Counted from the stretch's first letter, positions 5,001 through 55,222 are shown. The stretch is DNA of 64,000 nt from Paraspadella gotoi (GCA_051294375.1 CM119268.1:17424502-17488501); one strand, 5' to 3'. Program-made: numbers and translations. The notes: generated by a model from the sequence alone, not told the origin.

Positions 5001-5111
5001 GCAATTTCAGAAACACTTTGCTCAGTTAATCAGGTAAAATATTACCTAAGTTCACCCCTTAGGTGTTACAGCCTCATCTGAAGCTCAGGGACTGCTTATA
5101 TTGTCTCTTCA
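2090..5111 (+). mobile_element. Internally deleted duplicate of the TRIM-2/hAT nest (LTR start, nested hAT remnants, LTR end)
   Basis: 2091-2126 matches the LTR start at 6699 (GGTGGACTAAAAATCCAC..CCGTTCA.CAGCA). ~2127-4570 matches ~9498-11920, and ~4600-5111 matches ~13065-13581. It ends with the hAT TIR (CCTAAGTTCACCCCTTA), the TSD copy GGTGTTAC and the LTR end TGTCTCTTCA. Confidence 0.75.
2789..2856 (-). ncRNA. Degenerate copy of the permuted twister ribozyme motif
   Basis: Near-identical to 44829-44898, but the T2 GC is changed to AC and one C is lost from the T1 strand (GA-CG instead of GA-CCG). Confidence 0.6.
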
Positions 5112-5273
5112 TATCCTTATAAATATGTAAAATTTTATAATTAATTTTTTAAAAACTTTAATAACATATTTCGATTCCTCCAAGAAAAAAAAAACTTATA
5201 AAAAAATAAGTTTATGATATTTTATTATATTGCTGATAAAAAACAACAAAACCGGTTTGTCATAAACTACTAC

Positions 5274-6268: not shown

Positions 6269-6298
6269 ACNNNNNNNNNNNNNNNNNNNNNNNNNATC

Positions 6299-6367
6299 GC
6301 GGCCATTGGTGCCTGAGGCAAATCATTCGCCTCCCAACCCAAAGGTCGGGTTCTTGCCAGTGGTCGC
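6299..6367 (+). promoter_or_regulatory. tRNA-Gly(CCC)-like segment inside the TRIM-2 LTR (putative Pol III promoter; not a functional tRNA)
   Basis: Acceptor stem GCGGCCA/TGGTCGC, A-box-like TGGTGCCTGAGG, TCGCCTCCCA as in tRNA-Gly(CCC), and B-box-like GGGTTCTTGCC. A diverged copy lies at ~6743-6802. Confidence 0.55.
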
Positions 6368-7389
6368 CTAGCAATTAAGAGGGATGGGGCTCTTAACCCC
6401 TGTAACTTGGTGTTACAGCCTGATCCGAAGCTCAGCGACTGCTTATATTGAACGGTTATTTACTAATGTTACTAGTTACTATGTTTGTACTGATGTTACA
6501 TAACAATAATTACTGTCTCTTCATGTGAGCCCGACTTCCGACACCAACAGCAACAATAACTTTCAGGCAACATGCCTCAAACTGGCGGTTCCCTTTCCGC
6601 CAAAACACATCAGGCGGCATGCTTCGACTTGTGACGAACTTTCCACCAACAACAATTCACTGAAGAGACGATCATGACTTTCCCTACGGGAGGGAGGATG
6701 TACGGTGGACTAAAAATCCACCCAACCGTTCACCAGCAGAAGTTGGTGCGGAGGCAAATCATTCGCCTCCCATCCAATGTCGGGGCTTCTAGCCTGTGGT
6801 CACCTAGCAGTTAAGGGATGGGGCGTTTAAACCTGCTTGTAACATGGGTGTTACTAAGGGGTGAACTTAGGCAAAATTTTTTCTTAATAGTAATAGACAA
6901 TTTTTGGTTTACCTAGTAGTTAACTGATAAAAGTAGGCAATTTTATATTGAGGAAAGGAGCTTTAAAACTAGAGATAACTGACAACTTATGATCTAATTT
7001 GCTAAGATTTAAAGGGAAATATTTTCTTCAATATTTAAAACCAAATATATTAAATTAAATTTAAAATTAAAAAATTACAAATAGGATATTTTTCGGTATT
7101 AATTTTTAAACAAAATCTTTTCAATATAAACTTTAATTTGCTCAACATTGAAAATTCAATTGGTTTTAGCCCAAATTTTTAGAATATTTCAATGAAAGAC
7201 AAAATAATTTTGTAAAATAAAATTAAAGCTAAAAATATTTATTCAGATTTAACCAAGTTTGGTGACAGGGTTTGAGTCCGTTATATAGTTGTTTTTTAAT
7301 TAAGATAAACATTTTCAGAATTTTCAAAATGTCATTTTTTATTTTGAGTTAAAATCTTGTTAATGATGAAAAATAGAAGGAAAAAACTT

Positions 7390-11807: not shown

Positions 11808-14800
11808 GTATTGAGTAATCCATATCATATTCTGCAAAAGAATTCTAGTAAGCTTTGCCATTTTTTAATAAGATACAAAATATTATGGGCGACTTGAGTC
11901 TTGGTACATTGTTACATATCATCTTTGATCACTCAACCTAAATTGTAAAATCTTAACTTATGTATCTTAAATCATTTTCTCAGCATCTTGTAAGAGGCTT
12001 TTCTATTAAGATACTTAAAACTTTTAAAAATCTATCTAAACAATGTTTCTTAAAAATTTAAAACAAAATTTTTTTCTTTCGGTTAAAACTAGATTTTCAA
12101 GAGAAAATAATTTTCTTAAATTAAGCTTAATTCACAATCAAATTTTTAACTTAAAACTGATTCTTTACAGCTATAGCTCAATTTTCTACACTTCCTATAT
12201 TAATTCTTCTTTGTACGTACATACTTGGAGTTGTAATCACTAATAAGTCTAAAATAAACTACTGTTACATATTTTCCAGATGGGTTTTTATGCTTTTATG
12301 AGTTTTATGAGTTAAAAAACTTATAGAATTTATTTCAATTCGAACTTTTTACTTTATGTAAATGTTTTATATCATAAATTTAGTGCCTTATTTTATAGGG
12401 AATCTCTGAATTAAAAAAAATCAAATTCTGAATTTAAAAAAATTAAAAAACAGTAAGGCCATTTTTTTAGATATCGGCGTTTAACAAACTCCATCATCAC
12501 TCCCGTGCTTGGTATGTGTGTGCTGAATTTGCAAAAGTAATGACTAACGAGAATATACTTTCTTGAACGAAGTCGTTAAAAATGGAAAGCAGTTGCAGCT
12601 CAAACCGTTAGACTCTTCGTTGCAGGAAAAAACTATCTTGGGCAAGAAAGGACAATGGGAGATTCTTATGGCGCATTTTGTGAGAAAGTGTTTTTCGTTT
12701 CAAAATATTCAACGAATAATCCAAAATTGCATGAAATAATCTAAATTTGCTTGAAGCGAAAGCAAATTTTGAAAATATCTTTCATAGAATATGGATTGCG
12801 ATGCACCTATAAAGTAATTCCTGCCAAATTTTCTTATGAGAAAAACCGCCTTACCGTATTGGGCTGCAACTCTTCAAATAAGGTTTCTTTTATATTTAAT
12901 ATAGTACAAAAAAAAAATCGAAAAAAAAACGATGGAGCCTTTTAAAAAATAGTAAAAGTGAATACATTTCATTCGGAAATCGTTCAGGAGCTCTTCCTTT
13001 CGAAATCCGCAGCTCGGTTTTAGCCTATGTTAATTGCAATGTAGTGATATCCCGACTAATCTATGTGCATATCATATCGGATACAACTGATTACTACATC
13101 TGCAACATGTCCTTAAATGTATGATCCTTCATTTTATTTACTAATTTTCTTTATATCTGTTAATAATGAATAATTATAATAATATCAATGAATTATCTTC
13201 TTTAATAATTTATATATGGTTCTGTAGTAGCCAAGTAGATTACAGACTTAATGCCATGCTACTATTGATAATCATATTCATACCAACTGGGAGAAAGTAT
13301 GTTTGGGCTTAAAATATAGTAATAACAATATTAAATATAGTTGATAACGAAAATTAAAACAATAAAAAGAAATATATTGTTTTATTTATCTTTAAAAATA
13401 AATATAAGCCAACTATTTTGATCAGAATTGCCTATATTTACTCTAAGAAAAATATTTCTTTACCTAGGCAATTTCAGAAAACACTTTGTCACGTTTAATC
13501 AGGTAAATATTACCTAAGTTCACCCCCTAGGTGTTTACAGCATCATCTGAAGCTCAGGGACTGCTTATTATTGTCTCTTCAATATTTTTTCCTTATAATA
13601 TGTTTAAATTTTATATTAATTTTTTAAACTTTTTATAACATATTGGATCCTCCCAGAACAAATCTCTCCTTTTTGACCAGACTCGCATCATTTAATGGCC
13701 GTCAAGGGAAAACAACAAGACGCAGAATTCCAGATTTTTGTCTGGATTTGTGCAAAACGAGGTGACTGGCGGATAGAGGGAGAGGGTTGGGAGGAAGAGA
13801 AAGAGAGAGACAGGGGAAGAAGGGGAAGAGAGGCAGGAGGCAAGAAGGGACAAAGAGAGGGAGATAGAGAAAAGATTAAAAAGCATAAGAAAATGAAAAG
13901 TTGATGGAGGTTAAAAAAAAAGTAAACCAAGTAAAGAGTTATAGGATAGAAGGAAGAAAAGGAGATAAGAAAATAGAAGCTATGAGAAAGAAGCGAAGAT
14001 AATAAGAGAACCTAAATGTTTGGGAGCAAAAGACAGAAAAGAAACGGAAGGAAAGAAGAGAAGGAAAAATGTCAGGAAAAAACTTTCGTAAAAAAAAAAG
14101 AGGAATTACAAAACATAGGATGAAAGAGAAGCATAGGGAAATAAATAGTGCAGCATAGTACAGATGACAGAAAAGACAAATAGCAAAAGCGTATCACTTT
14201 CATTCCGCATCCGAGTATCAGAATTCTCTCCGCTCGCATTTTAATGGTCATGGAATTACGGGGCGGAATTTCCAGTCAGATCCTCAAAATATTTTACCGA
14301 TTCTTGGTCATTTTTTTTCTTTCTGCTCGTTTTACATCATTCATTCTTCCTTTTTTCAATAAGTTCTTCACTTGTTTCAAACTACCTTTCTTTTATCCTT
14401 TTTTTTTTATCTTTTTCCACATTTTCTCTCTTTCCTTACCAGTTCCTTACTTGTACTTACCTATTTCGGTAATTATAAACGTTTTTTTTCTTTTCATCGT
14501 TTTTATTATTCTCATCTCGCATCGGAATTTTTCCCCCAATGGATAATTTTTATCAATATATATCATTTTCGATATATATCCTTCTTCCATTTGCTTAATC
14601 AATCGCTACTCCCTTCTCTCTTTCATCAATCCACTCTCTCCCCATCAGTCCTCACTCTTCCACCCCTCTTCCCCCCCTCTCCTCCCTCCCAACCCAATGT
14701 CATTTATCCTCATCCCCAACCGACTTATTTGTCATACGTCAGACCACAAGATGGCAGAGAGCGATAAAAAGACCGTCTACCAAAAGGATTCGCTCTCCAT

Positions 14801-26363: not shown

Positions 26364-29300
26364 TCATTTCTCACAAATTCTCTTCCCGTTCAAAATTAGG
26401 ATCAAGTAGACGATCCCAACAAACAACGCCGTGGATCCGAAGCAGAGATACACTCGCCGCCCGCTCAGCGCTCCGTAGAGGACGCCTCCAACGAGGCAGC
26501 CAACGGCTCCTCCAGCGTTGATAAAGGAGGCACCGGCTATGCCCTGGAGTGTCGCGCCCAACCCGGCGGGGGCAATAGCGTTAGCGAATACGGCGGTCGT
26601 TGTCCAACTCAGGGCAAAAGTGACGCTAAAGAAATAACTCCCTAATTAATAACCAAAATTTGACTTCCTTGTAATTTTTATTCAAAAGTCCTTATCTTGC
26701 ACTTGATAACTGAAAAGCGATATTTTCCAAATTTTTATCACATCTGAAAATCAAAATGAAAATCAACAAAAACAAAAAAAAAAAACAAACCAAAAAACAT
26801 CTGATATCACCATATTGATTTATCATTTTTCTTTAGGAAGTCTCTTCGTGCTGGCGATAAATTTAAATTTTCACTTTTTACATTATAACACCAAAAAAAT
26901 CATTACTTTTCAAATCATAACGTCGCAGTCAATCAACTCAATTACCTATGAAGCGTCTCTACTAAGAGGATGAGCCAAGCGGATTTGACTAAGAAGTAAC
27001 CCAGAAATCTTAGGAAGTACCCGAAGAAGGAAACCACGAGGCAAACGTCAGGGCCAAATCTTGCGTTGAGGGTGCCGCTAAAAAAGATGGCGCCAGGAAG
27101 AAGGTCATGGGTAAGGGGCGCCAAATTGTTTATCACAACACTACCTGAATTGAAACATGATTGCTTCTGATAATGTGCCGACCGCATAGGATATGCCCAT
27201 TTGAGTTTGTGATGCCAGCAAGACAGTCTCTAGGAACAACCCGTGATAGCTGTTGTAAAAACCTACAAAGCAGCCGATGACGAAGATGCTGCTCAAGAAT
27301 GCCAAAACTCTATAATTAGACAGCAGCTGCGTCAGCTGCGGAAGGAGCCTCTGTGGAGTTATCAATGGTTGCACCTCGTTGCTTTGAGATCGGGAGGAGA
27401 TAAGGTCGGATGGGGCTTCCGTTTTCGGCGATGTCTGTGAGTCTAGAAAAGGTTTATAAAGAAAAGGTTTATAAATGAATAATAAAAAAAAAAATAAAAA
27501 ATAAGCAGCCTCGACTAAAATATTTTTGGCTGGAACTGAGGATCGGATGTGTACTCACTGTAGGGCTCCCAAAATTTTCTCATATTGAAAAAGTTGTTGA
27601 TTCTTGTAAAGTTTCTCATTCCATTTTTAGTGAAAAAACCGAATATCACCATAAAAAAAATTCTCAGATTTTGATTGATGGATTTTCATCACCACTTTAT
27701 ATAGCGCACCACTTCCGGTTGAAGCTGGCTTTTGTTTTTAAAAATAAAACGTTTTTACACTGATAAATATTTAGTTTTAAGCTGGATAATTGTTTATAGT
27801 TTTAGATTAGTTCCTCTTTTTATAAATTCTAAATTATATATTATCAAAAATATTTATTACGTGAATTAATTTTATCTTGAAATTAAAAAAACTAAATCAA
27901 TATTTTTGAAAGATTTGTCAAATATTATTCTTTCAAATTAAAATTTAATATAATGTAATAATATATTTTTCCAAATATTTATTAATTATTATACTATCAG
28001 AAAATCAGTAAATTATTCATATTCATAATTCAAATTACTTGTTTGAGCCGAATTCATTCCGATGAAGAGTGCAAAGAGAGCGGCGGAACCTTTGAAGGCT
28101 GAAGTGAGTTGAACTCGAATCCAGTAGGTGTCGGAAATGTCGCCGAGGTGGTTCAATCCTTTAAAAAAACTAGTTAAAAAAAATCTTAAAAGTATTTTGA
28201 TCTCGCCTGACGTTATTATCAAAGAAAATAACTGAAAAAAATCCGGGAAAAAAAATGAATGATTGATGCAATTACCTTTGGTTAAAACTAGGCGTGAAAA
28301 GAATGGTCAATTTTAAAAATTTTAATTATCGGTTAAAATGCTAAAATTTAACCAGTTAACCGTTAAAATCGGTTAATTTGCTAACTATCATTATAATGAT
28401 AAAACTAAGTAACAAAAAATATTTTTTTATTTTCAATAAAAATGAATTAAAAAGGAATTCAAAGAAAAAATTGTAATAACAAAAAACAAAACAAAACATA
28501 AATAAATCAAATAATGGAGGTGGTAAAGTGAGTTAAGCGGAATTAACTTATAATTAAAATTTATGCAAAATGTTAGCCTTCTTCAATGAGACAATGACAG
28601 AGAAAGGGAGAGAGAGAGAAAAAGAGAGAGAGAGAGAATGTTTGATTATATGTTAAGGTCAGTTAGATTGAGAAAGGAAAATTAAAAGAAAATTAAAGTT
28701 CAGTTAGTACAATAAAATACATTTAAGCAATATAAAAAAGTAAACAGTATCGTGATTAAAATTTGAAACTAGGAAAGTAGTAAATAACTACATTATTAAG
28801 TAATAAACATTGAAATAAATGAAAGTGAAAGTGAAAATATAAAGTTAATAGTTTATTTTTTTTAATATAGTAAATTTATAAGAAGAAGAAAAAGCTCTCT
28901 CTCTTTCTCTCTCCCATTATCATATATTAGGAAATTTCACAAACCTAATTTGCACTGAAGAAGGCTAACATCACCGAAATGTGTTTTTTTTAATTAAAAT
29001 AAATTCAGTTTGAAATTAAAAATTATTTTTCACTTTTAATACTTACATATATGATCTAAAATAGGGGAAAAAGTTTAAAAAAATAATTGACAGCTTTGCA
29101 AAAAAAAACCATAATACTTAAAACAAATAAAAATTTAAATTAGTAAATTATAAAATTAACCAGTTAATTTTACCAAATTAACCGATTGGTTAAAATTGTT
29201 TTTAATCGGTTAAAACCCCTATGTAATTGGTAATTGGTTATTGATGTAAAAGTAATTGATTATTAATGCAATAATAATTGATTGATGTAATAGTAATTGA

Positions 29301-32300
29301 TATAATAGTAATTGATGCGATAATTAGTGATTATTGGTACGATGATAACCAATTATTAATTATGATAACCAAATGATTGAAAGCGATGATAACCAATAAT
29401 TGATGTGATAACCAATTATTGATGTGATGAAAAACATTCATTGATGCAACCATAGTCATTCATTGATGCGATGATAGTCATTCATTGACGCGAAGAGTCA
29501 CTCAACATAAATTAAACAAACAAATGCGTGTATGAGTGAGAGAGAAAGAGAAAAAGAAAATTGTTTTGTAAATAAAACAAACAAATCCAAGTATAGATAT
29601 GAAACATAACAATTAAAAAGATCTTGATTATGAAAAGTGTAACGAATAATTGTCTTCGCGCTATGGTCGGCGTGTTCAAAGCTTAACGTTTGTTTACCTA
29701 CGTTGCTAGAAAGATAGCAAATGCGCTTTGTCGGACTTGTTGAGGAAGCGAAGAGCCGGCAGGGGAATTAATGAAGAATGAGTATTTTAATGAAATGAAC
29801 ATTAAAATGATAATTGATGATTTATTGAAATGACTTTACATTGTTAAGGTTTGAACTACTCTCCATCTACTTTCACAATACAATACTTGTACGTTCTAAC
29901 ACTGACATTGTGACTTGAAAGACAAACATTAAAATTAGGTTCTCGAAAAATAGCCTTTTTTACTTTATAAAAAGCCATATCTAATTTTTTAAATTTTTTA
30001 TGGTTACCCACTTTTACAATTTTTAATTATAAAAAAGCGTGACAACGACGATGGCGACGACAATGACTACGACATAAAAAAGCAGAAGCGAACCAACATC
30101 TCGCCCAAGACTGGTGCGATAAAAAAACATAAATTCTTATTAAAATTCCATATTGAATTAAAACAGCGAAATATGTCAATTATTTTGATATTAAAATTTT
30201 AAAATATTAAAATTTTATATTAAAATTCTCTTAATAATCGGATTCTAATCCAACATCTTTTGATGACAAATAACTAAAATCAGAACAACAAGCATTCAAC
30301 AAACAACGCCAACAACTCGGGCACTAACCGAACCCACTAACGACAGAGAAAATCATGTAGCCAATGGTTCCCCACATTCTCTGCTTCCCATAGTCGTTGG
30401 TCGCGTTGCCCAACTCGTCAAAAGTCAAGGAGTCTATCAGCGCCTCTACCGGAGATTCGGAGGCGAGAAGCAGCGCGATGAGCGTCAGGGCCGCCCAGAA
30501 GGTAACATCGAATGCTTCTGGAGTTGGAGGTGCTGGAGGTGGTGTCGATGGAATCAGCGGCATCGGATCAAAGGTGCCGTTTTCAATTGTTGGCCGAGGA
30601 TGCAATATAAACAAGCACTGCCAAGATGCAACATGCACCGCCATGGTTAATAGAAGGATCACCTAAATTTAAATTAAATTTGTTTATATATTTACACGGT
30701 TCCTTTTTACATCGATTTAATCGGCACTGAGTGCACAAGAATGAGATGTCCCGGGATACGTTTCTGGACCTTTGGGCTACTAAAAAAATGGCAATCAAAT
30801 TTTAACTAATGACAGTTTTTTTATAAATTAATTTTAAAATTAGCTATATAAAATTAATAAAGTAGAAAAAAAAAATTGAAATTTTTAATTAATGAAAAAA
30901 ATTACGCATCACCTATAATCTATAAACAATTTCTTTTTGTTTGCGTCCATAACCAATATTTAATCTTTAATAGTTTATTTATAATTAATTTTTGTTTATT
31001 AAAATATTATTTTAATTTTTTTTCAAATAATTTAAATTAAAAAAAATTATAACTATGCCAAGTGATTGAAAAAAAAAATATTATAAGGGACTTACATACC
31101 TAATATTGGCCTTCATATACATATAAAGTAAGCTTATTATAATTATGTTTTGACATAAAAGAGAAATAATTTCTAAAATTAAATATAAAAAAATTATAAC
31201 TTTGAATTTTTTTTTAGCATAATAAACGATTTTTAATTAATTGTTCATAATGCTTTTAATAGCTACTGGTCTGTTGTATCCTTCTCACTTCTCACTATTT
31301 ATTTACTTTTGATAAAAAAAAATACTGACATTAAAAATTCTGTATGAAACAGACAAACTTTTTTTTAATCACATGCTATTTAATTTTTTATAGTAATATA
31401 ATATTACCCTTAGACAAAATTTAAAAAGCTTTAAACAATCCCAACTAGGCATTTTTAAGGCCAAAAGTAAGGTTATCAATTGTATAAATATTTGATATTG
31501 GGACTGCTTTGTAGGTTTTAACTTAATTTTAGTATGACAAAAAATTAGTATATTTAACAGTTTTTTATTTGGAATGGGCATCAAAGTTTAATATATATTA
31601 TCATCAGTACATTTGTTAAGTATAATAGATTCCTCCATAGATTTTTTATTTTTTGAGAATGAGATTATGGATAATGCGTAATTTCTTTATTTTTTAAAAA
31701 TTTTCAACATTTTATTTTTTTTATTCTACTTTATTAATTTTATATAGCTAATTTTAAAATTAATTTATAAAAAACTGTCATTAGGAAAAATGTGATTACC
31801 CTTTATTGGTGTAGCTCAAAAATTTTAAGAAATCCTCTCTCCATTTACATAACTTAGGACGACGTATCATGTCGGCCAGATAGGATAGAAGTGGGCGTGA
31901 GATTAAGCCAACAAAGGGACCAAACCCAAGGATGACCGCAGTTTCGTTAAAGTCGAGCCCAAGATATTCGGAAAAATAATTGGCGATGAAGGGGAAGGAG
32001 AATGTTCCTCCGGTGTAATAACAAAAGAACACAAACTTGACCATAAGCAACTTGGTATTACACGCCTATAAATTGGAAAAACGTCTTGATAATTAATACA
32101 AACAACTAGGATTAAAACGACTTTTATGGCAATGCGAATAATTGATATAAGGAGACGGGTTTAAACGAAAATACATTTAATACAATGTAGAACATAAACA
32201 ATTAAAACGGTGAATGAGAAAGTATTAAAGAGATTTCGAGTTGTGTTGTACGTGTGAGCTTGTTGGCTTTTATAGCCCAAAAGTCGGCCAAGGTGTCCTC

Positions 32301-32971
32301 AGCGTAAGGTCAGTGGCTAATCAACCACCAGTTACCACTGTGGCCAGAAACATGACCTGAATGACCTAAAACGTCCTCCATACTTTCCTCTTATTCACAA
32401 TGTAGTCGGGCATTGCCTAGGTTCACCCCGCCTATAAGCATAACTCTTTCAGTTGTGACCCGGTGGCTCATTGAGTAAAGCCATCAGCTCATGACCACTA
32501 GGTACCGAGTTCAATCCCAACCCGGCACCTACCTGCGGGAAGAGTGAGGACGGCTGTAAGCCGCCTTGGATGCGTGGCAAACCCTCAAGCCTGGTTCCAA
32601 GCCCAGGACCCGTTCCTTGTCTCTAGAGGGGTTATAAAAGTTACGGATAGTCATCTTCTACCCACTTGCGCCTTATCCACACTGGTGAGCCCATCCTGTC
32701 GAACGTATTCCAACCTTCTGATTCCAGGCCCATGGACGTGCCGAGATTGCTCCCCTCCCTCCACTGGAAGCAGTGCAGGGTGGGTTACAATCTGGGGGCC
32801 ATGTAGTCGGGCATTGCCTAGGTTCACCCCGCCTATAAGCAACTTAGCGCCTTATCAACAACAAAAAATTTTAAAATATTTACAATTATTCAAGAATCAA
32901 CATTTTACCGTTGCTATAGTTTTCTTCTCTCCCTTATTTTTTTCTTCAGTCTCGTTGTTTTCCCAGTCCAT
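26364..32971 (-). CDS. MFS transporter, MFSD6-like (MFS_1_like), paralog A, 7 exons
   Basis: Exons 32971-32909, 32065-~31851 (donor phase ambiguous), 30662-30329, 28158-28039, 27442-27145, 27077-26946, 26625-26364, with GT-AG boundaries. Motifs: PFIANYFSEYLGL, LSYLADMIRRPK, DYGKQRMWGTIG (MFSD6-family signature), LSEAIMFQF, ETLHSVTFALSW, ATLQGI. Multiple hydrophobic helices. Confidence 0.88.
28952..28985 (+). ncRNA. Hammerhead-like motif (Penelope type), decayed; inverted partial copy at ~28570-28586
   Basis: GCA-CTGAAGA-AGGCTAACATCACC-GAAA-TGTG-TT after a CT-rich tract. The minus strand at 28586-28570 reads TTGAAGAAGGCTAACAT. Confidence 0.4.
29225..29500. repeat. Degenerate minisatellite (~15-20 bp, ATTGATGTAATAGTA-like); related array at ~37030-37180
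   Basis: Repeated ATTGATG(T/C)(A/G)AT(A/G) units read directly. Confidence 0.7.
32401..32860 (+). mobile_element. TRIM family 1 with tRNA-derived LTR (Helenus/TRIMp3-like); 3' LTR internally deleted; in intron 1 of MFS paralog A
   Basis: 5' LTR TG..CA 32401-32681; PBS TGGTGAGCCC at 32683; PPT TCTGGGGGCCA 32791-32801. The 3' LTR 32802-32860 keeps both ends only. Perfect 4-bp TSD ACAA (32397-32400, 32861-32864). A-box/B-box tRNA-like segment at 32457-32527. Confidence 0.88.
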
Positions 32972-33212: not shown

Positions 33213-34170
33213 TAGGGTGTTTAAAAATAACAAAATATAACAAATCGAATAAGGTACATAGCTATTTCAGTGTAATAAAGTCTGTAGAATTCAATGTTGA
33301 TAACCATATTTTTCGTATAGTTTCATCTTTTTTGTCGAAAATGGCGATTTTTGCAGCACATAAGGTACTATTCAAATGCAACAAACGTTGTAGAGTATAA
33401 GCAACTTAAATTATTAAAATTTTATAAAAGCTATATTTAGCTTATATAATACGAAAATAAAGACCCATATAAATATTTCAGTAAGTTTATTTAGAAATTT
33501 TATATTTTATTAACTGTTTGTTAGCTATATTTATAAATAAATAATAATAAAAAATAAGCTAAAATAAAAAAATAAAATTTTAAAATTTTAAAACCGGATT
33601 TGAATTCCCAACAAAAAGTTGATATAAGAAAGTATAATCCATTTTAATAAATTCTTTCATTAAGTTGGTTAAAAATGTTAAAAACTAGTTTTTTATATAA
33701 TATATATATTTAATTTTTATCTTAAAATTATAGTTTTTAAATTTTGATCAACTTAATAATATAATTTTGGAATAAAAATTATATTTTCTTATATCAACTT
33801 TTTGCAAGGAATACAAATCCATGAATAAAGTTTTAAAATTAGTATTCTTTAACATTAACCTAATTTTTACTCATAATTATTAATAAATATAGTTAACTAA
33901 CTTTTTATAAAATATAAGATTTAAAAATAAACTTACCATAATATTTTTAAAAGTCATTATTCTTATATTTTAAAAGCTTATTAAAATTTTATAAAATTTT
34001 AATAATTTTTTTATAACAATATTATATACATTAAAAATCGTCATTTTCGATAACAAAGATAAAATAATACCAAAAATGGTTATCACCATCAAATTCTACA
34101 GACTTGTTTGCACTAAAATAGCTATGTACCTTATTCGATTTGTTATATTTTATTATTTTTAAACGCCCTA
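33213..34170. mobile_element. Foldback-like hAT MITE (almost the whole element is an imperfect inverted repeat)
   Basis: Termini TAGGGTGTTTAAAAATAA / TTATTTTTAAACGCCCTA, long inverted arms, and a perfect 8-bp TSD CTGTTGAC at 33205-33212 and 34171-34178. Confidence 0.88.
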
Positions 34171-35323: not shown

Positions 35324-36010
35324 TGTGGATAAGGCGCTAAGTGGGCTGAAGATGACTATCCGTAACTTCTATAACCCCCTTTAGTAGCTATGGAACGGGT
35401 CCTGGGCTTGGAACCAGGCTTGAGGGGTTGCCACGCCCCCAAGGCGGCTTGCGGCCGTCCTCACACTTTCCTCAGAGTAGGTACCGGGTTGGGATTGAAC
35501 CCGGTACCTAGTGGTCATGAGCTGATGGCTTCACTCAATGAGCCACCGGGTCACGACTGAAGGTGTAATGCTTAGAGGCGGGGTGAACTTTGCAATGCCC
35601 ACTACATGCCCCCCAGATTGTAACCCACCCTGCACTGCTTCCAGTGGAGGGAGGGGAGCAATCTTCAGCACTCCATGGGCCTGGAATCAGAAGGTTGGAA
35701 TACGCTCGACAGGATGGGCTCACCAGTGTGGATATGGCGCTAAGTGGGCTGAAGATGACTATCCGTAACTTCTATAACCCCCTTTAGTAGCTATGGAACG
35801 GGTCCTGGGCTTGGAACCAGGCTTGAGGGGTTGCCACGCCCCCAAGGCGGCTTACGGCCGTCCTCACACTTCCCGCAGAGTAGGTACCGGGTTGGGATTG
35901 AACCCGGTACCTAGTGGTCATGAGCTGATGGCTTTACTCAATGAGCCACCGGGTCACGACTGAAGGTGTCATGCTTAGAGGCGGGGTGAACTTTGCAATG
36001 CCCGACTACA
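35324..36010 (-). mobile_element. Complete TRIM family 1 element with tRNA-derived LTRs (Helenus/TRIMp3-like)
   Basis: Two ~283-bp LTRs (36010-35727 and 35606-35324, TG..CA, few differences) flank a 120-bp internal region with PBS TGGTGAGCCC (from 35725) and PPT TCTGGGGGGCA. Flanked by TATA/TATA. Each LTR has A-box TGGCTCATTGAG and B-box GGTTCAATCC. Confidence 0.92.
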
Positions 36011-37920: not shown

Positions 37921-38675
37921 AGCAGATCCCGACTCTATAATTCACTTTGTCGGTCCGTCGGTCCGCCCCCTCAATCTTGTCGGGCATTAATTTATTTCAT
38001 GTCAGAACATCGAACTATGATAAATTATGCAAAAAAAAACCAATGTCCGTCCGTCCATCTGTCTGTCTGTCTGACCAACCATCCGTCCGTCCGTCCAACC
38101 TTAACAAAAAACACCAATTACTCGTGATTGGATGAATGGATTGGAATGAAATTTTGTATGTGATTAGGGAAGTGTGTGATTTAGCTGGATATGCAGTTTT
38201 GATGGAATCGTCCGAGTGGAAATGAGTTTAAAAAGAAAAAACAAAAAAATATATTTCATTATTTGAACACAAATTACTTTTGAGTGGATAGGACAATTGA
38301 CCTGAAATTTTGTATGTGGGTAGGAAAGTGTGTGATTAAGCTGGAAATCAAGTTTCGATGGAATCGTCTTAGTGGAAATGAGTATAAATGGAAAAAAACA
38401 AAAAACCTGTTTCACTAATTGATTATGCTTCTTTTTCTTATATATAAATTAATCAAATAATTAATTAGTTAATTAATCAATTAGTCTTTAATTAATCAGT
38501 TATTAATTAATCAGTCAATTAATCAATCAAAATAAACATTTCGGATCAAGTTTATTAATTAATTGACTAATAATTAATTATTTAACTTGAATTAATTAAT
38601 TATTAATTAATTATTATATATTTAATTACCGATAATGATCGTGGGCAGATCCGACATTGTTTGCACAAACTTGTT
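37921..38675 (+). mobile_element. DINE-1/HINE-like non-autonomous Helentron-type element
   Basis: GCAGATCC(C)GAC near both ends with an internal inverted GTCGGG, (GTCC/GTCT)n microsatellite, an internal ~160-bp tandem duplication and a 3' hairpin GTTTGCACAAAC-TTGTT. No TSD. The 3' part recurs at ~34710-34770 (+) and 41323-41816 (-). Confidence 0.6.
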
Positions 38676-38996
38676 TAATATGTTTATTATATATGATCAT
38701 CTTCATCTCAATTTCAATTTCATTCTATGTTTCTATGCATCTTATTCTCTCCTAATTTTTTTACCCAATTCCTAAAATTTTATCTTTTCAAGTTCATTGC
38801 AAAGCGTGGTATTATTTAGTTTATGACAATTAAAAAGAATGCTAGTTAAAAAAAAAACTTCGTGAGCAGTGAATAAATATTTGACGAGCAAATTTGTGAC
38901 AAAAGATTCATACAAAAGCTGACAGCCTAACAATTATAATGAAAAAAAATATACAAACAAAATACACATTACACAGCTGCCTGTTAAAAATAAAAA

Positions 38997-41900
38997 TTAC
39001 TCTTTCCCAAGTCCGTTGATTTCATCCTTCTTTTCATGGATCAGACGCTTGTTGCACAACATTATGACCCCATAAGCTAAACATGAGATTAATCCAGTGC
39101 ACGCAAAAACGAGATATGTTTCCCGTCCTCCAATAACTCCATACAGATTGCCCCCAATAATGCAGCCCACTCCCACGCCCGCGTTCTGGTAGAGACCCCC
39201 AGCTAGACCCTGAAGAGTGGCGCTTAAACCCTTAGGAGCGATGGCATTCGCGATGGAGGTCGACGTGGACCAGCTCAGGGCAAAGGTCACGCTGGTTCGG
39301 GAAAGAGATGATGCTGATTGAATGTTTGTGTAAAAGCTTATCACTTTTTGTATCAGTTTGTAAACTTATATGAATAGGTGAAGCTAGACAGTATTAGGTT
39401 TAACTTGGATTTTATAAGATGAGACTGAAAGAGTAACCAAAATAAATCACATTGCTTAGACTAACCTGTGAAATAACTCTATGGGTAGGACGACCCAGGC
39501 GGATTTCACGAAGAAATAACCGAGAAATCTGAGGAAGAAGCCGAAGAAAGACAGAAGGAGGGAGAAGTCGGAGCCGATGAGAGCAGTGAGTGCTCCGCTG
39601 TGATTTGTGAGTAAGTAAGACCAATTATAGAAATATTAACGAATAGGTAAAAAATATGTAGTAAGAATGAAACATATGGAAAAATAGTAACAAATAGTAA
39701 TAGTAATAGAAACAAGTAGTAAAATCAGGTAAAAAAAACGACATTTGACCTGAACTGAAACATGACAAATTCTGAGAAAGTCGCCACAGCGAAGGCGACG
39801 CCTATTTGGGCTTGAGTCGCTCTCAACTCCGCCTCCATGAAGACTCCTTGGTAGTTTCCATTAAAGCCGATGAGACATCCGATGGTGAGGAAACTAAACA
39901 GAAACAATAACACGCGACGGTTGAACAGGAGAAGCAACAGCTGTTTGTGTGAAGTCAGTGACGATTCAGGGTCGCCGTTTGTTTGAGTTGTATCGTTCTC
40001 TGGCGATCTTGGGAGAAATGGTGGTGAAGTTTCGGGGTCTTTAGAAGTCGGACCTTCAGGGAAAAAAACAGAAGTTAACAATGAAATAGATCGAACGGGG
40101 ACTTTAAAAAAATTAAAATATTTTTGCAGATTTTCAAAAAATAATATTTTAAAATCTCAACAACTAAAATTTTGTTTACTTTTCGTGAACAATTTTTTTC
40201 CGAGAAAGAGAGTGCAAATTGAGGCTAAAACTTTGAAAGCAGTGTTGAAGTGAATGCGGATCCAGTAGGAGTCTGAAATGTCGCCCAAATGATTTAATCC
40301 TAAAGGAAATTTGTTTTAAAATCATCTAAATATCATTTTACTTGTTGTAAAAGTTATCCTATAACTTCCAGATTAAAATTAAAAACGAACCAAGTAATTT
40401 TTACATAAATTTATAATCATGACGACCTTAAAATTATTTCAATTTGCCCACGAATTGTTCGCAGACCCGACCCACCGAATCCGCTAACAATGGAGAAGAT
40501 CATGCAGCCAAACGTTCCCCACATCCTCTGCCTTCCGTAGTCCTCTTTTGTGGCGTCTCCCATGGCGTCGAACGTCAACGCATCCATCAATGCGTTCGTG
40601 GCAGATCCGAACGCCATCAACGACGCAACCAGGACTAACGCCAACCAAAAGGTGGCGTCGGAGCCGAGTGTGCGATGTGGAGGCGTGGATGTCGAGTCGG
40701 TGACGTGTACATGTTTTGGACGTGGATTTAAAAGGAGCAGGCATTCCCACGAAGCGAGATGTATCGCCGCGGAGACGAGAAGAAACATCTTTTATGAAAG
40801 TAAGTAAATAAAGAAAAAGTTTTGTTTATATATATGTTGATTATTGCAGCATTTCTGTCTGCTTTCTGTCCGAGTTTGACGTAAAAAGTAGCTCTGAACA
40901 AATTTCTAAATTTTCACTTTCCCCTTACTTTGTGACTGTGACTGAGATCGGCGAAATACGTGATTGCCAGTCGAGCGATGACAGCAACGAAAGGAGCCAA
41001 ACCAAAGATGAATGCTGATTCGTCAAATGTGATATTAAGTGCAGTTGACAAATAATTGGCGATATATGGGTTTGAAAAGACGCTTCCCGCAAACCAACAA
41101 AAGTACATAAGTTTGAGGAGAAGTAGAACAGTGTTGCAGTTTCTCTGTAACGATAAAAAGCTACCATGTAACAAAATTACAATTGATTAGGTCTTATTTT
41201 TTTATTTATTATCAGAAGTGATTAGTGATTTGTCACTAAGAAGTTCTTGTAAGTTGTAACAGAAATCAAAGTTATCTGTGGTAGAAAAACTTTGACATGG
41301 TGAGAATTCGAATCATCTTTTGAACAAGTTTGAGCAAACAACGCCGGATCTGCCCACGATCATTAGAGGTAATTAATTAATCAATTAATTAATTCAAGTT
41401 AAATAATTAAGTAGTCAATTAATCAATTAATTTGATCCCATATGTTTGTTTTCAGGTCTTTTCATCACTGACCACAACAAAAGCAATGACGACGATGATG
41501 GAGACTATGACAATAATGCCGATAACAATTAATTAACTTGATTGATTGAATAATTAATTAATTGATAAATAACTTGATTGATTGAATAATTAATTAATAG
41601 ATAAATAAATTTATTGATTGAATAATTGATTATTTATTGACTGAACAATTAAATAATTATTGATTAATTAATTTACTAACTGATTAATTAACTGATTAAT
41701 TATTTGATTAATTAACACATCCTGCATTTACATTTAATATAAAAAGAAGAACAAGCATAATCAATTAGTGAAACAGTTTTTTTTGTTTTTTCCATTTAAA
41801 CTCATTTCCACTCGGAAACTCGGACATTTTATCTATTGTTTTTAACATTTCAGAAACGAATACGATTTTTCTATCATATGGAATAAAATTTTTTTCTTAA

Positions 41901-49991: not shown

Positions 49992-52900
49992 TGAACGATG
50001 CCGATAAAACTAATTTTCCTTCGTCGCTCTTGTATCATTGCTTGTTATTATCATAGTCTCTATCTTTAGTTTTCCTTCGCGATGCGAGATGCCATTTGTT
50101 TTTGAGATATTGCTTCAGCCCATCGCGAGGTTTGGGTCTGGGCATGTATTTCTGTCCAGACATGCATTCTTGTCCGCGAATGTCCTCCTTTATTTTGTAA
50201 TGTTTTTGCGCATGATCTTTCTGCTCGGGCATGGCCTTTTTCATGATAATAAAACGATGTTTTTGACGAGAGAATAGACTATTCGAGTTTGAAGAAGATA
50301 CTACGCGTTTCCTCTCAGATAGAAATTATTCAGCTCTTTCGAGATAGGCGCGTCTACATTTGGTGAGCCAGATCTAGGGAACATTTTCGTGGCCCTTCTT
50401 ATGCCCCAATAGCCTTTTTAAGGCTGTTTCAAAAAAGATTGTCACAAGATGGTATTTTGCAGACTTTTTTGAAAGCCTATGTCAATAAAATTCTTAAGAT
50501 CGTGCGTAACGGATTTTCCTCGCCTTCTCTTCTTCCCTAGCCGACCTATCCATGTATTTCTCCATGTGGTTGAGGCTTCTATTTCGTTCCGACCCGCGGC
50601 CCGGTGTGTCGGTCCGGCTGCGCCGGACTTCTGTGAATCATTGATGCTCCGGGCGCTTTGTTCGTCCGGCTGACGCCAGTTCCGCCACTAAAAGCTGCAC
50701 CCGTCCTCTCGGACAAATAACTTCCACGGATCGCGTATCGCAGCCATTATGGGTTGAAGACGTCTCAAGAAAATTCAGTATAGATTTTTTCATTGACGAA
50801 CCTGAGAAGTTGAAGATCCTTACGGCGTCTCAACGCGGCGCCTACTCGCCGCTTCGTCCTGGACTGGCCCGACGCGCGCCGCCAAATCCTCTCTACAAGG
50901 ACCAGTCTCGGCGGGTAACCCCGGTGACTGTCTTACGGGACTGCGCGCTCTGGCGGAAGGCCTCTCGGTTCATTGAGTATCTTCAAAGAGCCATCACTCT
51001 TAACGTCCTCCTTTTTTGGATAATTTTTAAGTTATTTTTAAATGTGATTCTGCCGCTCAGGCCAGCCGTCAGTGGACACTTGCAAGTCCTCCTAGTAGGA
51101 GTACATATGGAGTCGGCCAAGCGTCATACGAGAAATACTTGAATAACGACGCGCAAACACCTTTCGTTTTCCACTCTTGCCCAACGCAATGAGGTTGCAG
51201 GCATGAATTTCAAGCAACTCCTAGTTCTATGGAGTGCGCCATAGGGTGATCAAAAGTTGGAATGCTCTACGCCTCTGCTGGCGGAGTCAATAGCTCTCGC
51301 CATTCCATAAATTTCTTGTCTGGATTCCAATTCAGTTATAGATTTGGAGACAAAGCCGTTAACATGCGCACTCTCATGCACTTTTACCCTGCCGCTCTAA
51401 CGTCAAGACGCCAGGAAATGGCAAGAAAATAATCGAGGGAATATGGCAAGCGACGGTCGGCCAAGTGGAGCATTGGCGGCGCGTTCTCAATGCTCTCCAA
51501 GTTCGGGATCTCGAATCGGTCTCGAGTTCCTTGTGGACTTCTGGAAGCCAAGAGGTCAGTCTCTCACTTCCTGCGCTATCACTGTGGGAAATCAAGGACG
51601 CAACCTGAAGGCAAGTTCAAACGGCAGCTAGCGCTCGAGCCAAATGGCTCTTCAGATACATGGAACTATGTGCACAAGGAGATGACTCTCGCGTTTCATC
51701 AAGATTCTGGTCGATTTTAAGGTTTTCTGTTCAATCATCCACACACTGTGACACGCCAATTCCTTGGCGCTGATTTCCTGCCGTCGCGACCACCTCTGTC
51801 GTAGACCATTGCTGGCCGCAAGCTGTTGGACGACCTGACTCTCTGATTTGGGTAATCCCTTAGATCCCCCCCGTTCGACAATTGATGGAAGTACGTGGCA
51901 TCAAGCTGGCGCGTCATACAACATCTTCGATGCTTTTCCAACTCACTGAAGAATCGTATACTCGGACCTTTGACAATCCAAACTTTGTAACTACAAAACA
52001 ACCAGGCGATGGAGAGTTTATTTATTCATCCACATTCTATCTGAAGTGCATCCTGTGTGTCTTTGCAAGGTCTCGATCCGCACTGATCGCCACAGGAAGC
52101 TGGCACGGCAGCTCTAAAGGGTGAGTTTCGCAGGACGTTTCAACGCCATTGACATGTGTCTGCCGATCCAGTCTTTTGCACCAGTCATGGGGCGTCTTCT
52201 GGCCTAAAGCAAGCCATGAATAATCAGCGAAACCCTTGACATGGTGGGCTTCGAGCAGCAAATTGCGAGAAACTTTATTTGGACCGCCATTTCTGTCCCC
52301 TAACAAAGGATAAGATCGCTTAATCCCAGTAATTAAGCATTACTCCAAACGTAACTTCTCCGCCCGCCTCGCGGGATGTCGGTTATACAGTACAAGAATC
52401 GTACCTCAGTCAAGAGGCTACATACAAGTGCTGTACATGCTATGCATTAATGAGAGGCATGTCAATACGACGGGCCTATCATACTCCGTTTGGGTCATTT
52501 TGAAATACTGGCGATTTCCTTTGTTCTACAAAACGCTGCCTCAGGCTTTCCAAAGGGCTAATGGAACTCGAAGTTTGCCGTGTCCTTTCCAGGGTGTTTG
52601 TCTACCTATGACATCCTTGTCGCCTCCAAGGATCAGCACTAGCACACTGGAAGATCTTGCAAGACTCTTTGACGCCTGGCAGAACATGGACTTCATCTAC
52701 GAAACGAGAGAAGTGCGTTCTTGGCCCGCTTCTTTGACTTTCTTGGCCACAAGGTTACGTTCGCTGGCGCACTGTCTCGGCGCCGTCGCTCGACAAGCGT
52801 GGCGGTCATCCGTGCCTTCCCCAAGCCATTGACGATCAACGAACTATACCCGTTTCCTGGGCAGTGTCAATTACTCTTCGGCGTTTCTTGCCGCATGCTG

Positions 52901-55222
52901 CATTGACCATGGCGCCACTTTTTGGTGCCCTCAAGGGAAAACCTCAGCCAAAAATCTGTTGAATGGACGCTCAAGAACGCATCAAAGGCATTTGAAAGAA
53001 ACCAAAGAAGCCCTCGCATCTGCTTCTATGCTTGTCCATCCCGTTTCTGGCGCCGTTGACGGCGCTGACCGTTGAACGCTTCTGATGTCGCGATCAGGAG
53101 AGTTTTGGAACAACTTGTCCATGGATCCTGGCGGCCACTTGCCTTTTTCTCGAAGCCTCTACGGACAATGAGAGAAGTACTCTCATTTGACGGAGTTGCT
53201 GGCAGCTCACCTTCCATCCGCCACTTCCGATACTTCCTGGAGGGCGCCTTCACGCTCTTTACGGACCACGTCAGTCTTGTTCCTTCTCTGCACAAGAAGA
53301 CGATTCCCAAAAGCAGGCAGGCCACCAGCCTGGCTGCTATCTCTGAATTCACCACGATGTTCGCATGTCTCTGGGAAAAAAGAACATTGTGCGATCCCTC
53401 TCCAGGGTGGTCATCCTGACGCCGTTAGTGCTGTCAGCGGCGACGGCAATCACTTGCCCCTCTGCTCAGACCAAGAAGAGGATCAAGACATCCGCCGTTT
53501 GCGGGCATCATCGACGACTTCTCTTCGCGACTTCAGATGGCCATTCTGATGGCACCCAAAGTCATTCGTGGACATCTCCACCGCGCGTTGACGGCCACTG
53601 GTTCCGAAACTGGCGCCGCAATCGTCTTTGATGCGATCCACAGTCTTCTCATCCGGGCGTCAAAGCAACCAAAGCACTTGTTTTGAAACATTTTGTTGGC
53701 TCGGTGCGGCCAAGGACGCCGCCAGCTGGCACGTTCCTGCATCATCCTGCCAACGGGCAAAGGTGCGGACTCATGCCTCGGCACCTCTGGATTTTCAACG
53801 CCGCACAAAGGAGATTTCAACATGTCCATGTCGACCTCGTGGCACTTCCAGCCTCAAGAGGTTACACCCACCTCTACCGTTGTCGACGCTTCAGTCGTGT
53901 GGCCAGAGGCAGTCCCGACTCAGACATCTCAGCAGCAACGGTCGCGCGCTTTCGCTTCTGGTTGGGTTGCCCGCTTTTGGCGCCCCCTAGGGATTACTTG
54001 ATTCGTGGAAAGTCAATTCATTCTCAGATCTCTGGCTCAATTGGCTCAACCTTGCGCCAATCTTCATCATACCACCGTTTACCATCCTCAAGCCAATGGA
54101 ATGGTGAACGGTTCCATCGATGACTCAAGGCGTCCTCTACTCGCAAAATTGGTCGGCGCTCACTGGGTTCGACCAACTCCCGGCATCCTCCTAGTCTTCG
54201 CTCATGTTCGTCAAGACTCTGAGGCTCCATCGCGGAACTAGTCTACGGCGAAGAGTTCGATCGGGCGGAGTTAACCGGAACCTGGCGCCGCCGTACTCAG
54301 AGAGAACGACCTCCTTCGCGCTCTTCGGCGCGAGAAGCGCGCTTCGAGCTCTATCTGAAGGCACGCGCCATTCGACACATCGCGATGCCATTCCTGAAGG
54401 TCTTCACGAGGCGCGGTTTGTCCGTGTGCGCCAGGACCCTCACCGGGGACCGCTGCCAACCAGTCTCAAAACGTCCTTCCGTGTTTCAGCGTATATATGC
54501 AAAGTATTTCCGTCTGGACTTTTGGGCGACCCACGAGGTTTCCATTGACAGCGCTAGCCCTTCGTCGAGGAACAACTCCGAGACGGTGCCGGCTCAGCCG
54601 CCGCCCGAGGCCGCCCGCGCGTGCCTGCAGTTCCAGCTTCGCCTCCTCCAGTGCTCGGCGATTCATTGAGTTCTGCAGCTCCAATCCTATTGCAGACACG
54701 GACACCAACCAGAACGAACGAAACACACTCTCGGACCTCTTCGATATAGGGCGAGAACTCTATCTCTACCGTGACGTCGTTCTGGATGGGGGGCCTATGA
54801 AGAGATGCGATTAGCGAGTAGACTGAATTTTCCTTAGGTCGCGGCTCCTGTAGCAATTGACTTTGTTATGTATCATAAGTCCTCTATCGTGTAGTTTCAC
54901 TCTCGCGATGCGTAGATGCCAACTTGGTTTTTGGTAGATAAATTGTCAGCCCATCGGCGACGGTTTGGTTATGGGCAATGATGTAATTTACTCTGTCCAG
55001 ACATTGCTTTTCTGTCAGCGGCATGTCTTTCCCCTTTATTTGCTGTAATGTTTTTGCGGCATGCCTTCGTGCTCGGCATGCCTTTTTCATGATATATAAA
55101 ATAGACGAGATGTTTTTTGGCAGAGAATAGACATCATGTTTGAGAAGTTACTAGCGCGTGTTTTTCTCTCAGATAGCAAAATGTATTCAGCTCTTCGAGG
55201 ATAAGGCCGCCTCAGATCTCCA
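49992..55222 (+). mobile_element. Ty3/Gypsy LTR retrotransposon, CsRn1-like, full-length structure
   Basis: LTRs 49992-50358 and 54798-~55222 (TG..CA, colinear but indel-rich); PBS TGGTGAGCCAG at 50361; PPT GGATGGGGGGCCTA before 54798; pol domain order PR-RT-RH-IN. Confidence 0.93.
51690..54560 (+). pseudogene. Frameshifted pol polyprotein (protease, RT, RNase H, integrase)
   Basis: Fragments across frames: LGADFL (~51765), PFG (~52486), FQR, VYL(D)DILVAS (~52600), GHKV, ASDVAI..VLEQ, WRPLAFFSK, IRHFRYFLEG..TDH, HSLSHPGVKAT, CQRAKV, RRFQHVHVDLV, YHPQANGMV/ERFHR. Confidence 0.9.

Follow-up and report, generated by a model that had tools for sequence, protein, structure and literature searches.

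The tRNA-TRIMs of animals depend on Gypsy elements with the same primer site (PBS), as published for Helenus, also referred to as TRIMp3 (Kojima 2024, PMC10886601). In the available parts of that paper, Helenus families are described as under 1 kb long, with LTRs that contain tRNA-like A and B boxes, a 4-bp TSD, a PBS in common with a Gypsy element and LTRs unlike those of the helper, features in which they resemble the TRIMs described here. The nearest among them are the Trp-primed Helenus-2_SyJa and Helenus-2_SyUm, which are paired with Gypsy-32_NVi. Another animal TRIM, ta-TRIM of taeniid tapeworms, is likewise paired to its helper lennie by PBS and 4-bp TSD (Koziol 2015, PMC4558846). The CsRn1 clade of Gypsy elements is defined by a CHCC motif, a Trp PBS and a 4-bp TSD; its published PBS is TGGTGA(G/C)CCC, with G/C variation within the clade (PMC2582038). 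Among self-cleaving RNAs, the twisters described in retroelements belong to non-LTR elements, whose 5' end they occupy (PMC5408937, PMC8501958), and animal retrozymes are described, in the accessible text of the reports, as devoid of LTR, PBS and PPT (PMC4918200, PMC7761336).

The window analysed here is a stretch of 64,000 nucleotides from Paraspadella gotoi (GCA_051294375.1 CM119268.1:17424502-17488501). It contains MFSD6-like exons, whose matches of 33-47% (bivalve, beetle and sea cucumber among those with a name) indicate an animal, a 5.2-kb Ty3/Gypsy element of the CsRn1 clade (49992..55222) whose sequence is full of indel noise, and three TRIM copies in total. On balance, we favour the reading in which two Helenus-type TRIM families rely on the Gag-Pol of some CsRn1-clade element in the host and on its tRNA-Trp primer, the Gypsy being a member of that clade, and carry a twister-derived module in their LTRs.

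The Gypsy element has the domain order gag-PR-RT-RH-IN and lies on the plus strand. Its 5' LTR (49992..50358, 367 bp as read) aligns to the 3' LTR (54798..55222, with an uncertain end at 55216-55222) through 330 matches, 26 substitutions and 80 gap columns. The Trp-type PBS with G at position 7 (50361..50369; PMC2582038) starts two bases 3' of the CA of the LTR, and the PPT (54781..54797) has the same form as in the related loci L008, L013 and L020. The C-terminal half of a CHCC-type gag motif (RFGDKA ... CX3C, with one frame break inside) was located at 51337..51385, approximately 970 bp 3' of the PBS (range in relatives, 686-1091); this stretch is the top match of a profile made from the relatives' Gag, yet its score is inside the shuffle range. 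The first half of the CX2HX9CX3C motif is unreadable, and a plain HMM search for gag broke on frame breaks. The protease active-site region (FLVD, 51527..51590) was recognized by eye in a three-frame translation. RT, RNase H and integrase are encoded at 52350..54743 (RT_RNaseH E 1.4e-7; score 581 versus 17-23 in shuffles). The preliminary description called the element autonomous, which is not demonstrable for this copy: open gag and pol frames are absent as assembled, pol having 44 frame breaks and 3 stops. Read error is the likely cause of the frame breaks.

The assignment to the CsRn1 clade, previously proposed with a phylogeny as its check, is supported. The pol tree comprised 43 of 82 loci, each with at least 2500 bp and 380 columns; its rows include no named CsRn1 sequence and its aligning profile was built from relatives of the window Gypsy's own RNase H. 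In this tree the Gypsy pol falls in a 16-row clade with 11 CHCC loci, 4 loci without gag sequence and no CCHC locus (UFBoot 100, branch 0.51). The CHCC type was also found in 12 of the 19 loci scoring at least 106 bits, and CCHC in none. The 4-bp TSDs attributed to CsRn1 elements agree with the published definition (PMC2582038) and were present in both relatives with two flanks (L004, L041). The window Gypsy resembles described members such as PwRn1 and AgCR in domain order, Trp-type PBS TGGTGA(G/C)CC, a candidate CHCC-type gag tail and its placement among CHCC elements (PMC2582038), but it is about 50% identical to its nearest relatives, no open frames are readable and neither is its TSD.

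Two of the TRIM copies belong to TRIM-1. Copy A (32401..32860, plus strand) consists of an LTR (32401-32681), an internal part (32682-32801) with the PPT at 32791-32801, and an internally deleted 3' LTR (32802-32860), flanked by the clean 4-bp TSD ACAA. Copy B (35324..36010, minus strand) has 284-bp LTRs differing by 6 substitutions and a 119-bp internal part; its TSD is TATA within a (TA)n run and of ambiguous length. With two LTRs, PBS, PPT, no coding capacity and 687 bp, under the limit of about 1 kb, TRIM-1 has the characters of Helenus. Its LTR has a tRNA-like head (35881..35956, minus, in copy B) with a TGGCT A box at 35948 and a perfect GGTTC B box at 35904-35894, from which copy A is one change off. 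Over its full length the head weakly matched (E 0.48) an Rfam model with an antisense-tRNA-like consensus, and it gave neither an Rfam tRNA match nor an ARAGORN match at the default setting. A sequence search of metagenome contigs found no further TRIM-1 copy. TRIM-2 (6296..6854, plus) starts after an N gap with part of its 5' LTR (6296-6522), followed by the PBS (6523-6535), an internal part to 6698 and the first part of the 3' LTR (6699-6854). The rest of this LTR (13530..13581, plus; duplicated at 5062-5112) follows an inverted-repeat insertion, which has an 8-bp duplication. The best A and B boxes of TRIM-2 have 2-3 mismatches and pseudo-tRNAs are called at a very low threshold alone. Of the Pol III promoters previously ascribed to the TRIMs, that of TRIM-1 is plausible, with its A box and the perfect B box of copy B, and the candidate in TRIM-2 is weak.

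The agreement of primer sites described earlier was confirmed. The sequence TGGTGAGCC is found at 50361 in the Gypsy and at 32683 and 35725 (minus) in TRIM-1, and TRIM-2 has the near match TGTGAGCCC at 6524. The 9-mer occurs 4 times in the window versus 0.14 expected, the fourth copy (2747-2755, minus) having no adjoining LTR. Identity stops after these nine bases, the Gypsy continuing with AGATC, TRIM-1 with CATCC and TRIM-2 with CGAC. Through a wobble pair, the Gypsy site may also match another Arg isoacceptor. To judge from the PBS, the primer of the Gypsy and of the TRIMs is of tRNA-Trp type and not Arg, because the site fits the published CsRn1 PBS TGGTGA(G/C)CCC (PMC2582038) and the Arg PBS of Kojima's list does not fit (PMC10886601). 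The primer had been left undecided between Arg and Trp likeness; the Trp part stands and Arg is rejected, on the clade as well as on this misfit. The TRIM-2 PBS matches the bee Trp PBS of the same list at 11 of 13 places (PMC10886601). Half-tRNA-iMet priming as in the fungal Helenus was set aside; the fungal elements pair with Copia and have 5-bp TSDs.

Whether the Gypsy is the helper must be considered at two levels. The clade, the primer class and the 4-bp TSD of TRIM-1A are consistent with mobilisation by Gag-Pol of CsRn1 type, and to this extent the helper/parasite system put forward in the preliminary description is partly supported; it follows the model published for Helenus and for ta-TRIM/lennie, to which the pairing by itself makes the modest addition of the clade name CsRn1. 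The window Gypsy family is one candidate helper, and a tentative one. The proposal that it serves both TRIM families as their dedicated helper draws on the G at PBS position 7 of all three elements, where all 13 relatives whose PBS could be located, among 22 loci examined, have C; on the same class of PPT; and on damage dominated by indels, compatible with read errors in an element that may be young. G/C variation at this position is, however, published within the clade (PMC2582038) and a variant host tRNA would give G to every CsRn1 family. The likeness of the Gypsy PPT to that of TRIM-1 was confirmed, but this form recurs across the clade, L020 being closer to TRIM-1 than the window Gypsy is, and the TRIM-2 PPT differs from both. 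The first LTR bases differ between Gypsy and TRIMs, whereas ta-TRIM and lennie have identical first eight bases, dozens of TSDs and a Leu primer, against one clean TSD and a Trp primer here (PMC4558846). As already remarked, the LTR bodies are unrelated: 16 tests for local similarity in LTR bodies and internal parts gave nothing above shuffles (lowest 3/100, antisense). No significant U5 or internal signal is shared either, the sole U5 similarity, between TRIM-2 and the Gypsy 3' LTR (1/500 shuffles), being equalled by 64 of 1104 window tiles. The TSD of TRIM-1A measures 4 bp, and the Gypsy flanks, GTAT on the left and TATC on the right at the best end, give no readable duplication in the noisy sequence. 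Substitution divergence between LTRs is 2% in TRIM-1B, about 10% in TRIM-2 and 7% in the Gypsy; the last value is inflated by indel noise, and local duplications show 0.6%. With no family-specific link and the TSD, LTR age and coding state of the Gypsy unreadable, a dedicated helper is conceivable rather than probable. At the other extreme, the shared primer site could be a coincidence and the TRIMs could use an unrelated LTR lineage, given that just nine bases are in common, that the 9-mer occurs once more outside an LTR and that the TRIM-2 PPT differs from the other two. This is very improbable in view of the position of the PBS directly after the LTR end in each case, the same unusual G, and the 4-bp TSD and clade-type PPT of TRIM-1. 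Use of some CsRn1-clade element of the host is the likely reading.

A feature of both TRIM families that had been overlooked is a stretch laid out like a type-P5 twister behind the tRNA-like head. In TRIM-1B it occupies 35804..35869 (minus; predicted cut after 35854) in the 5' LTR and 35401..35466 (minus; predicted cut after 35451) in the 3' LTR, 403 nt separating the two predicted cuts; it lies at 32542..32607 (plus) in the 5' LTR of TRIM-1A. All three complete TRIM-1 LTRs have the conserved residues of L1 (NAA, GA), L2 (GC) and L4, with pairable T1 and T2, and the layout is thereby shown in TRIM-1 LTR DNA. In TRIM-2 (6380..6436, plus) a relaxed descriptor recovers it with compensatory changes relative to TRIM-1, on both sides of P4, T1 and upper P3 (0/5000 shuffles); the L2 GC is missing from the 5' LTR as read and present in the 3' LTR, whose displaced remainder holds P4/L4, and the 5' half of the core is also tRNA-Ser-like. 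P4 has 5/5 pairs in TRIM-1, 4/5 in the TRIM-2 5' LTR and the 5062 piece, and 3/5 in the 13530 piece. P2 of TRIM-1 is limited to two pairs plus a bulged third, and P1 is a 6-nt linker in which the monomer could form one pair, short of a stem of two or more; the P1 region of phage twister examples measures 16-23 nt, and P1 deletion is reported as tolerated. The strict descriptor, written after the TRIM sequence had been seen, has no match in the window besides the three complete TRIM-1 LTRs; its background is 4 matches in 30 window shuffles and 2 in 5000 LTR shuffles, and a scan of 440,854 bases of loci gave none. Applied to 20 viral loci, it picks exactly the 7 with Rfam Twister-P5 scores of 35-57 bits. 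The letters flanking P1 are common to TRIM-1 and L089, L094, L106 and L107, and the TRIM-1 L4 is identical to the L4 of a schistosome twister candidate from the literature; a short P1 linker was present in 1 of 201 further loci, about chance level by our own estimate. TRIM-1A and 1B show 27 differences, all of them outside the 32 core positions (P 0.034). The Rfam twister model scores TRIM-1 at 15.5-16.8 bits, far below its gathering cut-off of 37.6, and does not match TRIM-2. The module in each TRIM LTR is likely to be twister-derived.

Alternatively, the TRIMs could be ordinary Helenus elements, mobilised by a CsRn1-type Gypsy without self-cleavage, in which the same stretch is either inert as a relic or the remains of a type-II tRNA (Ser/Leu-like), the twister likeness deriving from a T arm that resembles P4/L4. 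With its threshold lowered, ARAGORN reports pseudo-tRNAs at these three stretches, and L4 is one mismatch off a B box, but the hairpin pairs 5/5 and 4/5 with an 8-nt loop versus 3/5 and 2/5 in the tRNA register, and the Rfam tRNA model is silent at E up to 10. The TRIM-2 5' half aligns to the tRNA-Ser(AGA) of L319 (13/1000 shuffles, biased by how that locus was fetched), and TRIM-1 is weakly similar to a phage tRNA-Ser (2-5/100 shuffles, also biased). Mutated tRNAs pass the descriptor in only about 2 of 10,000 cases (26/126,000), and T1 complementarity is kept through changes on both sides. The predicted folding disfavours the twister: with pseudoknots left out of the energy, its fold is 13 kcal/mol less stable than the minimum, whereas 7/7 phage twisters fold into the layout. 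A tRNA relic appears rather unlikely overall. Less likely still is a twister active as a dimer alone, in which the self-complementary linker would form P1 between LTR copies and cutting would wait for both LTRs. The linker is fully self-complementary in 4/5 LTR copies (5-6% chance each, the copies not being independent), the predicted minimum of the TRIM-1B core homodimer contains the linker helix, and double hammerheads of animal repeats offer a precedent (PMC7761336); the probability of cross-LTR pairing in the full transcript is nevertheless 0.000, and the double-twister fold reaches -47.9 versus -65.4 kcal/mol for the best dimer.

The following cycle can be proposed. Pol III would start inside the tRNA-like head and would meet no T-run terminator in TRIM-1, the 687 bp of copy B being without any run of 4 T. 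The twister module is predicted to cut the transcript after LTR base 157, which would define an RNA end, as a terminator otherwise would; cleavage of both LTRs would release a 403-nt unit, which would need circularisation as in plant retrozymes. CsRn1-type Gag would package the RNA, priming would be by a host tRNA-Trp with an acceptor stem that probably fits the G at position 7, and integration would leave a 4-bp duplication.

Several known systems can be set beside this proposal. Type-P5 twisters (RF02684; PMC5408937, PMC8501958) have the same order, P2-GA-T1-(P1)-NAA-P2-GC-P3-P4-L4, with both pseudoknots pairable, and the L4 and P4 of the TRIM module are as in phage examples; the TRIM module departs from them by its P1 linker, the presence of P3, the weak P2 and the low Rfam score. 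The window TRIMs differ from Helenus in the G at PBS position 7 and in the module behind the head, and no ribozyme in Helenus is mentioned in the available parts of the original paper (PMC10886601). The Synergus Helenus LTRs (277 bp versus 284) share, by eye, 14/15 bases with the TRIM-1B LTR end, an 8-mer of which occurs within the accessible Kojima supplement in two Synergus families only, and a hammerhead-like core was seen by eye at the place of the twister module in the LTRs of Helenus-2_SyJa and Helenus-2_SyUm. In the literature searched, neither a twister in an LTR element nor an animal retrozyme with LTR, PBS and PPT was found. If the LTR module cuts, it would represent both, as well as a natural twister nearly without P1; it would explain the ends of a Pol III TRIM lacking a terminator and imply the swapping of ribozymes, twister or hammerhead, within one TRIM lineage. 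More speculatively, the Trp-primed, CsRn1-dependent Helenus elements may form a class of animal LTR retrozymes, in which a tRNA-derived Pol III promoter is followed by an exchangeable self-cleaving ribozyme, of hammerhead type in gall wasps and a P1-less P5 twister in the present TRIMs; this ribozyme would replace the T-run terminator and cut out the unit RNA on which the reverse transcriptase of the helper acts. The LTR retrozymes of plants (Cervera 2016, PMC4918200; de la Pena 2020, PMC7761336) have a hammerhead, a tRNA-Met primer and demonstrated cleavage and circles, in contrast with the animal, twister-like module and tRNA-derived head described here from sequence alone. Like the TRIMs they are non-coding, with PBS, PPT, 4-bp TSD and a self-cleaving motif in each LTR, which is a predicted one in the TRIMs; their Gypsy helper was likewise deduced from PBS and PPT alone, and their ribozyme, like that of the TRIMs, is by prediction blocked within the full transcript.

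The LTR retrotransposon at 49992-55222 (plus strand), referred to here as Gypsy, comprises two LTRs, a primer site (PBS) at 50361, a pol region with RT, RNase H and integrase at 52350-54743 and a PPT at 54781-54797. Pol contains 44 frame breaks and only three stops, and the two LTRs are separated by 26 substitutions and 80 gap columns. These imbalances, together with the gaps of 25 N and the duplications differing by indels alone in other parts of the window, point to long-read noise, decay being also possible, and neither intact status, age nor TSD is assignable to the copy as assembled. At 2120-24771, large duplications accompanied by 25-N gaps are 93-95% identical and differ almost only by indels; gap filling with long reads typically leaves this pattern, and assembly artefacts may therefore be present among them. 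The window also contains at least two MFSD6-like transporter genes (Pfam MFS_1_like) in tandem on the minus strand (26945-32065 and 39000-41176) and long imperfect, MITE-like inverted repeats (33213-34170, 38211-41816 and 7388-8045).

The CsRn1 clade is described as defined by a CHCC Gag motif, a Trp PBS and a 4-bp TSD (PMC2582038). Among 82 related loci fetched for comparison, CHCC was found in 12 of the 19 scoring at least 106 bits against Gypsy and CCHC in none of these, the best CCHC locus reaching 78 bits. A pol tree with 44 rows over 505 columns was built without any named reference element; it covers loci of at least 2500 bp and 380 columns, and the window row carries X at its breaks. 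In it, Gypsy groups with 11 CHCC loci and four others whose retrieved stretches lack gag (UFBoot 100), which supports its placement in CsRn1. The second half of a CHCC motif, alone not significant, is visible at 51337-51385.

The published CsRn1 PBS is TGGTGA(G/C)CCC (PMC2582038). At 11 of 13 places the TRIM-2 PBS agrees with the bee tRNA-Trp PBS of Kojima figure S2, and the Arg site given in that figure does not match (PMC10886601). At position 7 all three window elements (Gypsy, TRIM-1, TRIM-2) have G; among 22 loci examined, the PBS could be located in 13 relatives, and every one of these has C. The simplest reading would be that one acceptor pair is flipped in the host's tRNA-Trp, which would tie the TRIMs, short gene-less LTR elements, to the host's CsRn1 elements as a group and not to one family. 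The preliminary description had proposed Gypsy as their candidate autonomous helper through a common PBS and PPT, noting that CsRn1-clade Gypsy elements make 4-bp TSDs. The relationship is real and mostly known already: at the level of the CsRn1 clade, where the Trp-type PBS agrees, the model is likely right and was anticipated by animal Helenus elements, tRNA-headed TRIMs with 4-bp TSDs and PBSs common with Gypsy families, one Trp pair among them (Kojima 2024, PMC10886601). For the window's Gypsy family it is unproven, because the TRIM-1 PPT form recurs in three loci from other sources (L008, L013 and L020, the last closer than Gypsy), 16 tests of TRIM bodies against Gypsy gave no similarity above shuffles, and the LTR starts differ, unlike those of ta-TRIM and lennie, which are alike (PMC4558846). 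Of 1104 window tiles, 64 scored as well as the lone suggestive match in U5.

TRIM-1 is a 687-bp element whose LTRs measure 284 bp. It carries A and B boxes and lacks any stretch of four consecutive T; copy A (32401..32860, plus strand) has a clean 4-bp TSD, and copy B lies at 35324..36010 on the minus strand. TRIM-2 (6296..6854, plus strand) is the older by its LTR divergence of about 10%; it is interrupted by insertions and has weak promoter boxes. Its 3' LTR is split from 6855 to ~13529 by an inverted-repeat element (duplicate right end at 5043-5061) with a hAT-like 8-bp duplication, GGTGTTAC, whose terminal 17 bases match the reversed TRIM-1A LTR start at 16 places. A TRIM-2 LTR start at 2090-2126 ends abruptly after 37 bases and is probably the 5' LTR cut by another insertion. 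In both families a 3' LTR shows an internal deletion relative to the 5' LTR with both ends retained (TRIM-1A, 32802-32860, ~220 bases; TRIM-2, 13530-13581, ~60).

The new part of the finding is a ribozyme-like module, read from the sequence of three TRIM copies in one noisy window. Behind the tRNA head, Twister-P5 matches weakly in Rfam (15.5-16.8 bits, cut-off 37.6). A strict descriptor, which was built after these matches on the alignment in Rfam and general features of twister structure and then compared with published elements, matches the three complete TRIM-1 LTRs and nowhere else in the window; its background is four matches in 30 window shuffles, 2/5000 LTR shuffles and none in 440,854 bases of loci. 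It called 10 of 26 viral loci and, among 20 run through Rfam, exactly the seven scoring 35-57 bits. These loci were fetched by the P4/L4 motif, so P4/L4 identity with TRIM-1 is by construction; the letters flanking P1 on both sides, common to TRIM-1 and four viral twisters, are not. Type-P5 twisters occur in viral contigs L083, L085, L089, L094, L096, L097, L101, L103, L106, L107, L340, L341, L343 and L407, several directly ahead of a start codon. TRIM-2 passes once the L2 GC, present in its 3' LTR, is no longer required (0/5000 shuffles; this relaxed form gives one chance match elsewhere in the window and nine in 20 shuffles). Between TRIM-1 and TRIM-2, both sides changed with pairing retained in one P4, two T1 and four upper P3 pairs, and none of the 27 differences between TRIM-1A and 1B falls within 32 core positions (P 0.034).

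Against a twister, a 6-nt linker stands in for P1 and pairing in P2 is weak. Because of a rival hairpin, the twister fold also lies 13 kcal/mol above the predicted minimum, in energies that do not count pseudoknots. Natural short-linker twisters were found at 1/201 loci, no more than chance; in a viral contig (L333, 61-106), a P3 hairpin and a linker of 5 nt form part of a twister-like layout, which may be fortuitous. The stretches could instead be pseudo-tRNAs, as ARAGORN calls them at lowered threshold, or tRNA relics, the TRIM-2 5' half resembling tRNA-Ser; yet fewer pairs form in tRNA register (3 and 2 of 5, compared with 5 and 4), and when seven tRNAs were mutated in silico, 26 of 126,000 copies passed the strict descriptor. 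The palindromic linker suggests a twister acting as a dimer, to which full-transcript folding gives no weight. Overall, a twister origin of the module appears reasonably probable, while active cleavage is possible but somewhat doubtful.

The TRIMs would be transcribed by Pol III from the tRNA-like head, packaged by CsRn1-type Gag, primed by Trp and then at the PPT, and integrated with a 4-bp duplication. A predicted cut after TRIM-1 LTR base 157 would define an RNA end, and two such cuts would release a 403-nt unit that would circularise, on the model of plant retrozymes, whose unit RNA circularises (PMC4918200). Animal retrozymes are said to lack LTR, PBS and PPT (PMC4918200, PMC7761336). No twister within an LTR element appeared in the literature searched, judged mostly by title and abstract start, with subscription journals outside coverage. 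The closest parallel comes from two Trp-primed Helenus families of Synergus (PMC10886601 supplement), in which a hammerhead-like core, unmentioned in the portions of the article consulted, where ribozymes are named solely in citing retrozymes, can be read by eye behind the tRNA head. Their LTRs, Helenus-2_SyJa-LTR and Helenus-2_SyUm-LTR, likewise have no run of four T, show by eye a long loop-loop complement in this core, and equal the TRIM-1B LTR end at 14/15 bases.
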